In this document: piece after piece, positions 13,370 to 24,951 of the stretch | How positions within the stretch are numbered: position 1 is the first letter of the stretch | How the letters are laid out: every line of letters starts with the position of its first letter | Assembly: GCA_019747895.1 (NCBI GenBank) | Contig: JAIEQF010000019.1 | Span: forward strand, 792-64,791 | Length of the DNA: 64,000 nucleotides | Source of the DNA: Chthoniobacterales bacterium | Lineage (GTDB): Bacteria; Verrucomicrobiota; Verrucomicrobiia; Chthoniobacterales; UBA6821 | Direction of reading: 5' to 3' | Made by a program: the position numbers and the translations under genes | Notes under the pieces: generated by a model | What the model saw: the letters and a program-made list of their open reading frames with translations, nothing else | Database searches by the model: none | What the model was told of the DNA's origin: nothing

Positions 13370-13463
13370 CACAAAGAACACAAAGAACACAAAGAACACA
13401 AGGAACACAAAGAAGAATTTTTTTATAAAAAAATTCTAGGGATTTACTTTTTCCTTTGTGTTC
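13370..13463. repeat. 5 x 9-bp tandem CACAAAGAA array, an AT hairpin, and an inverted half-copy CCTTTGTGTTC
   Basis: Read directly from the sequence; units lie at 13370, 13379, 13388, 13397 and 13406. It belongs to the same 9-mer family as 17772..17991, 22983..23169 and 42729..42945. Confidence 0.85.
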
Positions 13464-17771: not shown

Positions 17772-17991
17772 AATTAACCGCAAGAGAGAGCGGAAAAGAA
17801 AGAAGAGAATTAACCGCAAAGAACGCAAAGATCGCAAAAAAGAGAATATTAGAAAGGCATTATTGATTTGTAAAAAGATACTTCAATTTCAATCATGATG
17901 AATATTCGGAGATGTCTCCAATTTTAAGAATTTCTTAATTCTTTGCGTTCTTTGCGGTTGATTTTTTTTAGTTTTTGGTCTTGCGGTTAAT
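17772..17991. repeat. inverted 9-mer arrays (TTAACCGCAAAGAACGCAAAGA / rc) around a ~95-bp AT-rich spacer
   Basis: Read directly from the sequence. The inner arms are 17810..17831 and 17940..17959, and the outer arms ATTAACCGCAAGA are 17773.. and ..17991. It fills the whole gap between the two trans-sulfuration genes. Confidence 0.85.
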
Positions 17992-18983: not shown

Positions 18984-19886
18984 TCAAGATTTTTCCCTTT
19001 CTACAGGCAAAGAAACACCTAAAATCCAACCTTCGATACGGAGTAGTTTTCTGAACGGTGCGGAACATTTTTCTAAATTGAGAAAATTACTATTTTTATG
19101 CATCAGATGACGCATGCTAGCAGCTGAAATCAAAGCGTCTGCTTGATGATCATTGATACTGGAAAAAGAAGGGGAGATTGCTTCAAAAAAAGATAAAAGT
19201 TCTTTGAGTTTTTTAATGTTACGAACTTTGGAGAGTCCATGGTTAGCTTTTTTTAAAAAGAGGCGAGGGTAGATTTCTGCAATGACAATAGTTGCTGCAT
19301 CACAATGCTCCTGTGAGTCAAAAGGCCAAAAAGCGATTTTTTCTTGTAGCTGCATTTTTAAAAAATGAGCCATACGCATTGCTGATAACCCACCCTTGCC
19401 TACTTGTTTTGTACCTATTAGCTTGAAAGGATTTTCAGGAAATCCTAGCTGTTCATTGATACAACTTAATTCTGTTTGGCGTCGCTTTTCTGGAAAATGG
19501 GGAGGTTTTTTTCCTGCAGTCCAAAAGTCATTACAAAAGAGTGAGTCTCGCCAAAACGTATGAGCATAAAAATTAGCCTCTTGAGAACAGATTCGATTAA
19601 TCAAAGCCCAAAGTTCAGTAGCTGTTTGAAGATTTGGAAGTCTTTTGTGAACGGTAGAAGCAGCATATCCAAAATTGCTGTCAATGCCGATGAGGAGACG
19701 TTTGGAGTGGGCTGCATGATTGATAATCCATTCTGCCACATCTATTCGTGCCCACTGGTTTTTTGGCGGAGAAACCAGAGAGACGGATAATTTGTTAGAA
19801 ACTGCTTTTGCGACCGTAATGCTTGGCGTGAGTAGGGCTTTAGATCCAGACCAATCGATAGCAATGAATTCATCAAATGGGATCAT
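18984..19886 (-). CDS. hypothetical protein, possibly RNase H-fold (DUF429-like)
   Basis: Its start ATG overlaps the upstream photolyase stop as ATGA (19883..19886). The N-terminal IAIDWSG and C-terminal HQADALISA...EGWI are reminiscent of DUF429. The fold call is weak. Confidence 0.5.
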   Translation of the reverse strand: MIPFDEFIAIDWSGSKALLTPSITVAKAVSNKLSVSLVSPPKNQWARIDVAEWIINHAAHSKRLLIGIDSNFGYAASTVHKRLPNLQTATELWALINRICSQEANFYAHTFWRDSLFCNDFWTAGKKPPHFPEKRRQTELSCINEQLGFPENPFKLIGTKQVGKGGLSAMRMAHFLKMQLQEKIAFWPFDSQEHCDAATIVIAEIYPRLFLKKANHGLSKVRNIKKLKELLSFFEAISPSFSSINDHQADALISAASMRHLMHKNSNFLNLEKCSAPFRKLLRIEGWILGVSLPVEREKS

Positions 19887-21422: not shown

Positions 21423-22970
21423 TCAAGAAGGAATTACTTTTTTAATGATGGTTGCTAATTTTAATCCAATTCCTTTTGTCGCAGCCATCTCTTCCACGCT
21501 AATCTGACGGAGGCGGCGGACGCTTCCAAAAGTTTTTAAAAGGAGTCTTTTTTTAGCACTGCTAATTCCAGGAATATCGTCAAGAGCGCTTTCTGAAACA
21601 CGCTTGCGCAGGAGGAGCTCGTGATAACCATTGGCGATACGATGAGCTTCGTCACGGATACGTTGAAGGAGGCGTAGCGCTCCTGTGTTTTTGTGCAATC
21701 GAATGGGAGCGGTTTCTCCAGGACGATAGATTTCTTCAAACTCCTTCGCTAATCCAATAATAGGAATATTGCCAAGGTCCAATATTTTAAGTTCTTTACA
21801 AGCAGAGCTTAACTGGCCTTTGCCGCCGTCGACAATGATGAGATCGGGGAGCGGAGAATGTTTGCCTAACTTTTTAAAATGCGATTGAAGTTGTTCTAGA
21901 ATTGATTCTTGAGATACGTCGTCTTGAATTTCTTTTTTTGCTTCTTCAAGAATCCTGCGATAGCGTCGGCGCACCACTTCAGCCATGCTAGCAAAATCAT
22001 CTTGGGTTTTGGTGCTCGTGATGCGGTAACGGCGATAGTTTTTTCGTTCAGGAACGCCGTTCCTGAATTGTACCATCGAAGCCACAATGTGGGTGTTGGA
22101 AATATTCGAAATATCGAAACATTCCATGACACGTGGTTCTGTTGGAAGGTGCAGGAATTGCTGAAGCTCGATAAGATCAGCTTCCGGATCGATGCTGCCT
22201 GGAAGAGATTTGCGGGTAAAGCGACGAGCTGGCTCTGTGGTCGTTTGCAAACTGGTGAAGAGATTGCGCAGGGAGGCCGCTTTTTCAAAGTCAAGGCGCT
22301 CAGCAGCCTGTTGCATCTCCCTTTCAATATCTTCAATCATCGTTCGCGACTTTCCTTCAAGGAAATCGCAGGCTTCTAAGATACGCTGACGATACTCTTC
22401 ACGGGTGACTCGCTGAATGCAAGGAGCTGAGCAGTTTTGAATAATATGATCGAGGCAATGCTTAAAATCTTTTTCAGTTGGCTCTAAAGGTCGGCAGGAA
22501 CGGATGCCAAATTTTTTGGTCATGGTCTTCAGCGTCTGTCGTAGTGCTGGAGCATTCGGAAAAGGACCAAAATAGCGCGCACCATCTTCTTTGCGTAAGC
22601 GAGTGAGCTGAAAATGCGGGAAGGGCTCACTGAGCTGCACGCGGACGAGAAGAAAGCGCTTGTCGTCGCGAAAACTAATGTTGTATTTAGGGCGCCATTC
22701 TTTGATCAGTTTTCCTTCGTACAAAATCGCTTCGGTGTCGCTTTTAACAAGGTGATATTCGAAATCATGAATGCTTTCGATCAACGCGCGTGTTTTTAGG
22801 TCAGCGCGTGTGAGGCGAGAAGGGGTAAAATAATTTGCAAGTCGTTTTCTCAAATCACGCGCCTTGCCAACGTAAATAATCCGATGCAAGCGATCACGCA
22901 TCACATAGACGCCCGGCTGATGAGGGACATCGCGCAGTTTGGTGAGCAGGCTGTTTTTTATTAATGACAT
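21423..22970 (-). CDS. uvrC: excinuclease ABC subunit C
   Basis: It has GIY-YIG (GVYVMRD..IIYVGKA), a UVR domain (LDFEKAASLRN), an endonuclease V-like domain (ECFDISN.., DGGKGQ) and a C-terminal HhH2. At 515 aa it is compact. Confidence 0.9.
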   Translation of the reverse strand: MSLIKNSLLTKLRDVPHQPGVYVMRDRLHRIIYVGKARDLRKRLANYFTPSRLTRADLKTRALIESIHDFEYHLVKSDTEAILYEGKLIKEWRPKYNISFRDDKRFLLVRVQLSEPFPHFQLTRLRKEDGARYFGPFPNAPALRQTLKTMTKKFGIRSCRPLEPTEKDFKHCLDHIIQNCSAPCIQRVTREEYRQRILEACDFLEGKSRTMIEDIEREMQQAAERLDFEKAASLRNLFTSLQTTTEPARRFTRKSLPGSIDPEADLIELQQFLHLPTEPRVMECFDISNISNTHIVASMVQFRNGVPERKNYRRYRITSTKTQDDFASMAEVVRRRYRRILEEAKKEIQDDVSQESILEQLQSHFKKLGKHSPLPDLIIVDGGKGQLSSACKELKILDLGNIPIIGLAKEFEEIYRPGETAPIRLHKNTGALRLLQRIRDEAHRIANGYHELLLRKRVSESALDDIPGISSAKKRLLLKTFGSVRRLRQISVEEMAATKGIGLKLATIIKKVIPS

Positions 22971-22982
22971 CAGGATAGAAAA

Positions 22983-23169
22983 AATTTAACCGCGAAACAT
23001 GCGAAAGAACACAAAGAAAAATTAGTAGATGATATCTCTTGAAAAAGGAGCTGATGTTTTGTTTTGAGCACTTTTTTCTGATAATTACAAGCATCACGAA
23101 AAGGAAAGATCTTCAAAAAGCAAAATAGATTTCTTTCAAAAATTCTTTGCGTCCTTTGTGGTTAATTTT
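22983..23169. repeat. diverged inverted 9-mer arrays around a ~115-bp spacer (uvrC/Fic divergent region)
   Basis: The left arm is AATTTAACCGCGAAACATGCGAAAGAACACAAAGAAAAATT and the right arm is AAAATTCTTTGCGTCCTTTGTGGTTAATTTT, both read directly. Confidence 0.7.
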
Positions 23170-23200
23170 CTTCTTTCCATCTTTTTATTGTACTACAATC

Positions 23201-23264
23201 ATTGCTGATAAATTGCTGATAAATTGCTGATAAATTGCTGATAAATTGCTGATAAATTGCTGAT
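23201..23264. repeat. 11-bp tandem repeat ATTGCTGATAA, 5 full copies plus one 9-nt copy
   Basis: Read directly from the sequence; all five full copies are perfect. The last partial copy continues into the Fic ATG (ATTGCTGATGAAA). Confidence 0.95.
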
Positions 23265-24348
23265 GAAATTTCAACCAAATTATAACATAACTCGAGAGAT
23301 TGCGGGAAACATTTTGCGCATTGAAAAGGCTAAAAAAGAGTCGATCCACTTCCCACTGACGCCAACGGTATTAAGCTCATTGCGTGAATCTGCGCAGCTT
23401 TATACGACTCATTATTCCACCATGATTGAGGGAAATCAGCTAGCGCCCAAAGAAGTGGAAGCAGTTTTAAAAAAAGAAGAACACTTTCCAGGGCGTGCAC
23501 GAGAGGAACATGAGATCAAAGGCTATTATGCGGCTTTAAAAAAAGTTGAGGAATGGGCTGCTGAAAAAAAAGAGATTACCGAACAAACGATTCAAACTCT
23601 TCATGCTCTTGTCATGGGCAATGGACGGATTCGTGTTAAACCAACGCCTTATCGTGATGGACAAAATGTGATTAGGGATAGCAGAACGCGCGCTATTGTC
23701 TATATGCCTCCTGAAGCAAAGGATGTGTCAGCTTTGATGATCTCCATGGTTGATTGGATCGATGATGTAAAAAAAATTCCAACACCGATTGTTGCTGGAT
23801 TAGTTCACTATCAATTTGCAACGATTCATCCTTATTACGATGGCAATGGAAGGACAGCACGACTCTTAACAACGCTGGTGCTACATTTGGGAGGATACGA
23901 TCTGAAAGGACTTTATTCTCTCGAGGAATATTACGCACGTCATCTTCATGGCTACTATGAGGCGATAGGTGTGGGAGCTTCTCACAATTATTATGAAGGT
24001 CGTGCGAAGAGAAGTGTGACGCCATGGTTGAACTATTTTATCGCTGGTATGGCTGATTCTTTTGAAAAGGTGATTGTCAAAATGAAAGACGCTCAAGAAA
24101 AAGGAAATTCAGATCAGAGCGCTTTCTTGCGCAAGCTCGATGCAAGGCAGCGAAAAGCTCTGAAGCTCTTTCAAAAATTTGAAGCAGTCACCAGTCAACA
24201 AATTGGCGCCTTGTTTGATTTTAAGCCGCGAACGAGCACACACGTTTGTGCTGTGTGGGTTCAGGAAGGATTTTTAGAAGCAGTTGGAAGTTCTAATAAA
24301 AATAGGAAATACAAGCTGACTCCTGAGTATGAGTGCCTCATTTTTTGA
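23263..24348 (+). CDS. Fic family protein (AMPylase-type) with an N-terminal inhibitory helix
   Basis: The Fic motif is HPYYDGNGRTAR and the upstream STMIEG fits the (S/T)xxxE(G/N) auto-inhibition motif. The C-terminus is probably a winged helix. The ATG is at 23263; the track TTG is at 23257. Confidence 0.85.
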   Translation: MKFQPNYNITREIAGNILRIEKAKKESIHFPLTPTVLSSLRESAQLYTTHYSTMIEGNQLAPKEVEAVLKKEEHFPGRAREEHEIKGYYAALKKVEEWAAEKKEITEQTIQTLHALVMGNGRIRVKPTPYRDGQNVIRDSRTRAIVYMPPEAKDVSALMISMVDWIDDVKKIPTPIVAGLVHYQFATIHPYYDGNGRTARLLTTLVLHLGGYDLKGLYSLEEYYARHLHGYYEAIGVGASHNYYEGRAKRSVTPWLNYFIAGMADSFEKVIVKMKDAQEKGNSDQSAFLRKLDARQRKALKLFQKFEAVTSQQIGALFDFKPRTSTHVCAVWVQEGFLEAVGSSNKNRKYKLTPEYECLIF

Positions 24349-24390: not shown

Positions 24391-24849
24391 ATGAAAATAA
24401 TATCGATATTATTTAGTGGAGCGTTTTTATTTTTCTGTTTTTCCATAGCAAATCCATATCGTATCAATGGAGAGTGCATGGAGCCTGTCATAAAAGATGG
24501 AAAACTTTATTTCGTTAATCATCTTTATTATAAAATTAATGCTTATAGAGCCGGAGATATCGTTATCTTTCGCCAGAAAGATAAAGTATGGATCTCAAGA
24601 ATTGTTGCCCTTGAAAACCAAGAAATAAAAATTAGCGATCATGCTATCTTGATAGACGAAGCAGTATACTCTGATAATATACAGCGAAGTTGGCAGGATT
24701 GGAGGTATGGAAAATATGGCGTTGATAATATAACAAAAGTCCCATTAGAACACGTGTACGTTTTATCAGATAACTTGTCGGCTCATCATGATGATAGTCG
24801 GATTTTCGGTCCAATTTCTTATCACAATATTCTTGGAAAAGTTTGGTAA
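24391..24849 (+). CDS. S26 (signal peptidase I) family homolog with non-canonical catalytic positions
   Basis: Boxes B to E align with SipS/LepB: NGECMEPV (Ser to Cys), AGDIVIF, WISRIVALENQ (Lys to Ser) and LSDNLSAHHDDSRIFG. It has an N-terminal TM helix. Confidence 0.7.
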   Translation: MKIISILFSGAFLFFCFSIANPYRINGECMEPVIKDGKLYFVNHLYYKINAYRAGDIVIFRQKDKVWISRIVALENQEIKISDHAILIDEAVYSDNIQRSWQDWRYGKYGVDNITKVPLEHVYVLSDNLSAHHDDSRIFGPISYHNILGKVW

Positions 24850-24923
24850 ATCTAAAACTTACTTTTCCTGTAGCTGAAAACAAAATTTTCTCCTTTTTTC
24901 TAAAAGTTTTTTAAAACTCTTTA

Positions 24924-24951
24924 CCCATTACTCGTTACCTATTACTTTGCC
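24924..24951. repeat. period-7 imperfect repeat CCCATTA/CTCGTTA/CCTATTA/CTTTGCC
   Basis: Read directly from the sequence. It ends 6 nt before the GT2 ATG at 24958. Confidence 0.6.

Follow-up and report, generated by a model that had tools for sequence, protein, structure and literature searches.

How does a bacterium hold the dosage of a Fic AMP-transferase in check? Unleashed Fic AMP-transferases are toxic, and to our knowledge dosage control in bacteria is known for very few of them. The question is raised by a locus of a Chthoniobacterales bacterium (Verrucomicrobiota) in which a short tandem repeat runs directly into the start codon of a fic gene. The locus lies in a stretch of 64,000 nt (contig JAIEQF010000019.1 of assembly GCA_019747895.1), here called the window, and all coordinates refer to it. 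What is this array, and which protein, if any, reads it? The features concerned are the following.

21423 to 22970, - strand: uvrC, divergent from fic (Pfam)
23201 to 23266, + strand: 11-bp array of six units, five of ATTGCTGATAA followed by ATTGCTGATGA (sequence, TRF, orthologues and family operator)
23206 to 23214, + strand: first of five TGATAAATT motifs, resembling an extended -10 element, TG-n-TAAATT (read from the sequence)
23256 to 23266, + strand: start-codon unit ATTGCTGATGA with in-frame TTG (23257-23259) and ATG (23263-23265), the counterpart of TATGCCGATAA in relatives
23263 to 24348, + strand: fic, encoding an AMP-transferase of the class II auto-inhibited type with a C-terminal winged helix (Pfam, AF2, Foldseek)
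24130 to 24345, + strand: region coding for the C-terminal winged helix-turn-helix (wHTH), the proposed reader of the boxes (AF2 secondary structure, HMM)

Positions 23201-23255 read as ATTGCTGATAA five times with zero mismatches, and in the last unit, ATTGCTGATGA at 23256-23266, a single mismatch (A10 to G) creates the ATG at 23263-23265, from which the Fic ORF continues with AAA TTT CAA. By TRF the array has a period of 11, 6.3 copies, 98% matches and a score of 131, and it is among the top-scoring short-period arrays of the genome. Its core boxes, TGCTGATAA, lie at 23203, 23214, 23225, 23236 and 23247, and the sixth, at 23258, reads TGCTGATGA; together the six boxes span -54 to +9 relative to the fic start. 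Every full unit carries TGA and TAA, so that the + strand is closed in all three frames, while the - strand is open in all three. An earlier sequence-only reading of this DNA had described five mismatch-free units running into the Fic ATG, with both stops in each full unit and a period of about one helical turn. These points stand, and the remark on the period is apt, since with it neighbouring boxes face the same side of the DNA. The sixth unit, which that reading took for a partial one, does create the ATG but is a full unit, homologous to the start-codon box TATGCCGATAA of relatives.

Chance is excluded as the origin of the array, because the doubled unit occurs nowhere else in this 2.06-Mb genome of 44% G+C and a reversed-pattern control in the same genome gave 0 matches. 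The array is real and lies far beyond chance. Single boxes number 99 genome-wide against 74 expected, and a regulon search of the whole genome returned no second tandem box array. One isolated perfect ATTGCTGATAA is present at 19378-19388, about 3.8 kb upstream of the array and inside an ORF downstream of a photolyase gene; it may be there by chance. In addition, a 54-aa ORF on the - strand (23185-23349) passes through the array as ...HQQFISNLSAIYQQFISNLSAMIVVQ and there looks like the tails that arrays encode in the restriction-linked Fic proteins described below. It is probably a by-product of the stop-free box on that strand and not a gene.

The gene behind the array encodes a Fic protein of the auto-inhibited type, as the sequence-only reading had proposed: the Pfam search returns Fic (PF02661, E 1.4e-17), and the ORF contains HPYYDGNGRTAR as its catalytic motif and STMIEGN as an inhibitory motif of class II. 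The protein has 361 aa if read from the ATG at 23263 and 363 aa from the TTG at 23257, and exact-protein look-ups with either start codon gave no record elsewhere. The AF2 model (pLDDT 82, pTM 0.85) places a wHTH at residues 294-352, with helices at 294-303, 311-318 and 322-334 (the recognition helix) and wing strands at 338-341 and 349-352, followed by a short tail helix at 354-359. A full-length Foldseek search retrieves the Fic-wHTH structures 4rgl, 3zcn/3eqx, 8cil and 7xux, SoFic included. Pfam, AF2 and Foldseek thus agree on a Fic catalytic domain fused to a C-terminal wHTH.

The unit is not private to this genome. A scan for ATTGCNGATAAATTGCNGATAA in one genome per GTDB species found at least 119 stretches with the doubled unit, against about one expected. 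The matches listed come from Chloroflexota, Acidobacteriota, Planctomycetota, Bacteroidota, Thermodesulfobacteriota, Cyanobacteriota and other phyla and, among archaea, from Halobacteriota (Methanothrix, Methanoperedens and ANME-2); unit variants at the Schlafen-type genes treated below include ATTGCGGATAA and, in ANME/Methanosarcinales, the 9-bp ATTGCGGTA. In four further genomes that were checked the array is likewise unique, and a dispersed repeat or MITE was rejected on the ground that it is unique in each of the five. Among the matches listed, 58 ORFs next to an array show similarity to the window Fic, which in about 45 extends over the full length with E values of 1e-90 to 1e-109.

The arrangement of the boxes is clearest in the nearest Fic subfamily, represented by an unbiased set of 80 metagenomic loci with 59-68% identity, of which 68 were used for position counts. 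Here the core TGCnGATAA, or TTATCnGCA on the other strand, sits at fixed positions. With at most one mismatch, TGCNGATAA is found at +1 of the start codon in 61/68 loci, at -21 in 39/68 and at -10 in 17/68, and TTATCNGCA at -49/-48 in 60/68 and at -60/-59 in 37/68. Two TTATCnGCA boxes, 11 bp apart, overlap a sigma70-like promoter (TTGAyT-17 nt-CATAAT), and about 19 bp beyond them two or three oppositely oriented boxes run into the start codon. The last of these, TATGCCGATAA, holds the start codon itself (ATG CCG ATA AAA TTT, MPIKF). The window array keeps the same register: its TTG at 23257 aligns with the ATG of relatives, and its ATG at 23263 with their third codon. The window array is the start-proximal half of this putative operator, in which three imperfect boxes have become six near-perfect ones. 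The promoter-overlapping opposite boxes are missing from the window and its orthologues; a search within 400 bp in the window with up to two mismatches gave no inverted TTATCNGCA partner, and only direct repeats are present. Judged by sequence comparison, the box is demonstrably under nucleotide-level selection, and its placement is conserved across the Fic-wHTH family. Of the two functions offered by the sequence-only reading, namely copy-number control of expression and iterated protein-binding sites, such a conserved and position-specific box favours the second.

Closer to the window, the order uvrC-array-Fic-GT2 (a GT2 glycosyltransferase gene) is shared with four other lineages, all of which have the same unit. 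Position 6, which is C or T, is the sole variable base among the orthologous units, and these are accordingly named C-units and T-units.

G000 (the window genome): five T-units, start unit ATTGCTGATG
P0002 lineage (three samples, L151/L152/L153): four C-units, start unit ATTGCCGATG
G003: one T-unit and four C-units, start unit ATTGCCGATG
L155 (P0004 lineage): three C-units, start unit ATTGCTGATG
L156 (P0006 lineage): two C-units, start unit ATTGCCGATG

The last unit furnishes the ATG in all five lineages, and their arrays comprise 2.8, 3.8, 4.8, 5.8 and 5.8 units. The Fic proteins of these lineages are 68-88% identical, and the fourfold-degenerate sites of their genes are only 32-55% identical, which is near saturation. 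That the other ten positions of the unit are invariant despite this points to selection, not recency. The earlier proposal that perfect identity implies recent expansion is therefore half right: copy number differs between lineages, and the window array is homogenised to the T variant whereas most orthologues have the C variant, but identity is also kept by selection between lineages. The suggested comparison of strains has a similarly divided outcome, in that copy number differs between lineages (2.8-5.8), whereas no length difference was found within two sister lineages (five assemblies). In the first of them the three assemblies agree on 4.8 units; in the second, two samples have equal intergenic length.

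These data bear on the possibility that the array is a contingency locus, at which slipped-strand gain or loss of 11 bp would shift the promoter-to-start spacing and toggle Fic within the population. Perfect units, copy numbers that vary between lineages and homogenisation to the T variant, which implies slippage turnover, all fit this idea, and the array resembles the contingency loci of Haemophilus, Neisseria and others in being a perfect short tandem repeat of lineage-variable copy number at the 5' end of a gene. A pure slippage tract, however, needs neither a unit that is conserved across phyla nor a register that is fixed even in relatives with two or three imperfect boxes. The unit is far from arbitrary, since at least 119 species genomes, spread over many phyla, contain it, its placement is position-specific, and length is constant within lineages over the five assemblies. 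Furthermore, six 11-bp units are, as a matter of general knowledge, short for high-frequency slippage. A contingency locus is on balance improbable.

How did the array come to this site? Across most of the genus, uvrC and the GT2 gene are divergent and 90-350 bp apart, with neither Fic nor array between them. Array and Fic occupy this site in G000 and G003 and in the lineages P0002, P0004 and P0006, the last three identified via protein look-ups. On the UvrC tree, Fic-bearing lineages stand beside Fic-less ones: G000 with G012 (L140), which by UvrC is the closest relative of the window genome (94% identity), and G003 with G001 (L148). The uvrC-GT2 sites of G012 and G001 carry neither fic nor array. 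This scatter implies repeated loss (or gain) of the array and fic as a module. G000 and G003 have a common right-hand junction, and the relationships of Fic and UvrC are roughly congruent; the simplest history would be an old insertion of array and fic followed by several losses.

The same observations can be read differently, with the boxes as a recombination or insertion site that moves Fic and Schlafen-type accessory genes as cassettes under some other reader. Presence of Fic and array in G000 and G003 and their absence at the same site in G012 and G001 would agree with such mobility, as would arrays on both sides of a gene in L118 and L022 and the residence of restriction-linked members in mobile defence operons. 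Yet no recombinase is consistently adjacent, the fixed positions that overlap a promoter in the 68 loci fit an operator and not an attachment site, and the common junction with rough Fic/UvrC congruence fits an old insertion with losses. In a collection of 2.9 million viral contigs only one match was found, which also led to rejection of a phage origin. A role as a recombination site is thus very unlikely.

Some variation at this site concerns the neighbours of fic. An ORF resembling signal peptidases (S26), at 24391-24849 between fic and GT2, is present only in the window genome, and fic lies directly next to GT2 in G003, L155 and L156. The G003 sequence after fic (ACCTAAAAATTACTTTTTCTGATG) resembles the window sequence after the S26 gene (ATCTAAAACTTACTTTTCCTGTAG), which suggests a secondary insertion of the S26 ORF at ACCTAAAA. 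On the other side, between uvrC and the array, the window contains an element of about 190 bp (22983-23169) with inverted 9-mer blocks (AACCGCGAAACATGCGAAAGAACACAAAGAA ... TTCTTTGCGTCCTTTGTGGTTAAT). The P0002 lineage has a related element at the corresponding position, and in G002 such an element occupies the whole gap between uvrC and GT2; G003, L155 and L156 do not have it. Further copies in the window lie near 13370 and at 17815-17956 and 42726-42908.

In G003, L155 and L156 only 5-9 nt separate the TTG start of uvrC from the array's far end, and the array makes up nearly the entire divergent uvrC/fic intergenic region. The sequence TG-n-TAAATT arises at every junction of T-variant units, and the resulting TGATAAATT motifs may serve as fic promoter elements, for which they are candidates by sequence. 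A consensus scan of the intergenic region, upstream of the array and within it, gave no canonical sigma70 site. In the P0002 lineage (L151), TTTACA-16 nt-TAAATT stretches across the left edge of the array and is a second promoter candidate.

A host-read element would do without any dedicated binding protein: the A/T-rich phased units could form curved DNA, act as an UP-like element, offer a repeated extended -10 (TGaTAAATT), or provide an unstructured leader without a Shine-Dalgarno sequence. The motif at each T-unit junction is in its favour, and an array that is the whole uvrC/fic intergenic region in three lineages implies promoter function for at least one gene. Moreover, short tandem repeats often precede start codons in this genome, and the genus has many of them. 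Tandem arrays of 7 bp with 4-10 copies (CAGGTTA, AGTTCGC, CCTACAG, xxTTACx and others) occur by the dozen genome-wide, and one heptad array, at 24896-24946, closely precedes the start codon of GT2. The heptads before GT2, however, differ in sequence among G000, G003 (AACTGCG x3), G009 and others, and vary between orthologous loci where the 11-mer is constant. The array does not belong to this heptad type, whose repeats have a period of 7-8 and vary with the locus; its period is 11, and its unit is identical in five lineages. Three further points weigh against a host-read element. The box is common to archaea and numerous phyla of bacteria, whose machineries for transcription and translation differ, it is also placed at the 3' ends of genes and upstream of promoters, and most orthologues have the C variant, which is without the TG of an extended -10. 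A purely host-read element is unlikely, though a local tendency to expand or a leader function may contribute, given the other repeats before start codons in the genus.

A specialised sigma factor could also be considered, since the C-variant unit contains GCCGATAA, the -10 consensus of sigma-28 (FliA-type) promoters. A literature search with four 11-mers matched only primers and a table of E. coli FliA promoters (PMC4183435). The window, though, reads GCTGATAA, in which the CGA core is broken, and within the array TAAA stands 13 nt upstream, not 15 nt. In the genome no sigma of the FliA/WhiG family attains the TIGR02479 cut-off (189.6 bits; best score 111), and the box is common in archaea. 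Sigma-28 promoter repeats are exceedingly improbable, and this identity was rejected on spacing and for want of a FliA-class sigma above the cut-off.

If the box is a protein-binding site, which protein recognises it? At 64 of the 119 array loci listed, a wHTH-coding segment lies within 60 nt of the array, and these 64 come from a total of 73 wHTH matches within the 806 kb around the 119 listed arrays. Arrays also flank genes with the domains SLFN_AlbA_2, HATPase_c_4 and HTH_DeoR, which belong to an enzyme family unrelated to Fic. In L022, L028, L030, L041, L059, L077, L078 and L124, arrays directly follow the stop codon of such genes and are sometimes also found upstream; in L022 two arrays flank one gene. 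Searched with an HMM of the Fic wHTH, the array-carrying SLFN_AlbA_2/HATPase_c_4 proteins give matches at their C-termini, and Fic and these proteins have in common only the wHTH domain and the array. Across the predicted proteins, the C-terminal winged helix is the sole component common to all array contexts. From this co-occurrence we infer that it is the reader.

[quoted passage not shown] Here an array of two to four TTATCGGCAAT units lies within the last ~15 codons of fic itself, and its three-frame reading yields the tail LSAIYRQ(F/Y)IG(N/S)LSAM, in which the variable residues are those from the two spacer bases. About 115 of 120 unbiased cluster representatives have such a tail. Even in RM-linked fic genes of 56-66% G+C the tail codons are always TTA-TCG-GCA, TAT-CGG-CAA and ATC-GGC, and two genes from the Methanoperedens group, 67% identical, share 40/44 bases in the array but only about half of the 60 bases before it. 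The operon order is hsdS-fic-hsdR, with the hsdR start at -1 to +20 nt after the fic stop. Boxes were also sought at the 5' ends of these fic genes, and none were found. Tail arrays were recorded at loci L020-L138 (for example L128, 7104-7126 in Fic orientation; L248 and L251 are further cases) in many bacterial phyla and in archaea, and a literature search on Fic, Type I restriction and winged helices returned nothing on the box.

The position of these arrays suggests that a wHTH bound at the end of fic may control hsdR. A broader and more tentative proposal is that TTATCnGCA at 11-bp spacing is the universal cognate site of one winged-helix module, present in Fic and Schlafen/AlbA2-HATPase proteins of bacteria and archaea. 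The Fic of Type I systems would attach to the end of the gene that encodes it and gate hsdR, and the window array would be another deployment of the module. If true, this would be a self-encoded controller of Type I restriction, with a protein-binding array that doubles as coding sequence. One further scenario derived the window array from the 3' tail array of a former - strand Fic gene whose body had been inverted, as the - strand reads LSAIYQQFISNLSAM like RM-type tails. It was rejected, because the register of the array matches the start-proximal boxes of the nearest subfamily and because the proteins of the window, P0002 and P0006 all retain an intact C-terminal LSxxYxxLIF.

For the window, the array is probably an expanded, iterated operator for the wHTH of Fic itself, serving negative autoregulation; the evidence for this is the conserved sequence and placement of the box, its linkage to the wHTH and the precedent of CccR, described below. 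The recognised core would be TGCnGATAA, which reads TTATCnGCA on the opposite strand; its recurrence at 11-bp intervals would present successive sites on the same side of the helix, and the reader would most likely be the C-terminal wHTH of Fic. As Fic accumulates, several copies would bind head-to-tail along the six boxes, which extend from about 60 bp upstream of fic into its first codons. Bound Fic would block RNA polymerase, giving negative autoregulation of a potentially toxic auto-inhibited AMP-transferase, and how cooperative and how strong the feedback is would be set by the count of boxes, 2.8-5.8 in orthologues. We infer the binding of Fic to the array, the position of the promoter and the effect of copy number. 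Several findings count against autoregulation by Fic: the genome offers no regulon for a transcription-factor role beyond self-control, the geometry in the window is purely direct-repeat, unlike an inverted pair bound by a dimer, as in CccR, the promoter scan gave no canonical sigma70 site, and the genus has many other short repeats before start codons.

CccR-type self-repression by Fic-HTH proteins is the nearest known system. In Yersinia pseudotuberculosis, CccR binds AGATAATCAT-N26-ATGATAATCT at its own -35/-10 region and represses its own promoter, and binding is lost when the HTH is removed (PMC9755527). Both proteins combine Fic with a C-terminal HTH, and 7xux matches the window protein by sequence and fold. 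Both genes also have repeated boxes of about 10 bp with a GATAA core in their own 5' region, which in CccR overlap the -35/-10. The differences are considerable. CccR uses two inverted boxes 26 bp apart that are bound by a dimer, whereas in the window six boxes follow one another as direct repeats every 11 bp and reach into the start codon; an inverted pair with a long spacer is lacking there, and an inverted arrangement is found in the nearest subfamily. Outside GATAA the box sequences are unlike, and the proteins are only distantly related (E 7e-11). Furthermore, CccR is a secreted T6SS effector while nothing points to secretion of the window Fic, and the window-type box is common to thousands of genes and two protein families.

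Binding to 11-bp direct repeats head-to-tail has precedents among winged-helix regulators, such as PhoB on pho boxes and OmpR on its sites, and in plasmid iterons bound by winged-helix Rep proteins. The likeness is one of mechanism only, with no membership claimed: direct repeats of about one turn serve winged-helix domains, and the number of sites sets cooperativity. The window Fic differs in that it has no receiver domain and no replication function, and its reader domain is fused to an AMP-transferase. The RM-linked relatives, and only these, also recall the C proteins and C boxes of restriction systems, where a small self-encoded HTH module meets repeated boxes just upstream of a restriction gene. 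In their case, however, the boxes are part of the coding sequence at the end of fic, the restriction system is of Type I, and the putative reader is the Fic enzyme.

What does this mean for the Fic family? TGCnGATAA at 11-bp phasing is a concrete candidate operator for a family with thousands of members, and the orthologous loci with three to six sites form a natural allelic series for cooperativity. In both archaea and bacteria, the putative operator ties Fic to operons for Type I restriction and to defence genes of the Schlafen-like kind. With its period of 11 nt, each base comes to stand in every codon position in turn, and the encoded tail is an amphipathic helix; in this way an array of binding sites can persist in coding DNA. 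If binding is confirmed, promoters under the control of Fic would be predictable from sequence alone.
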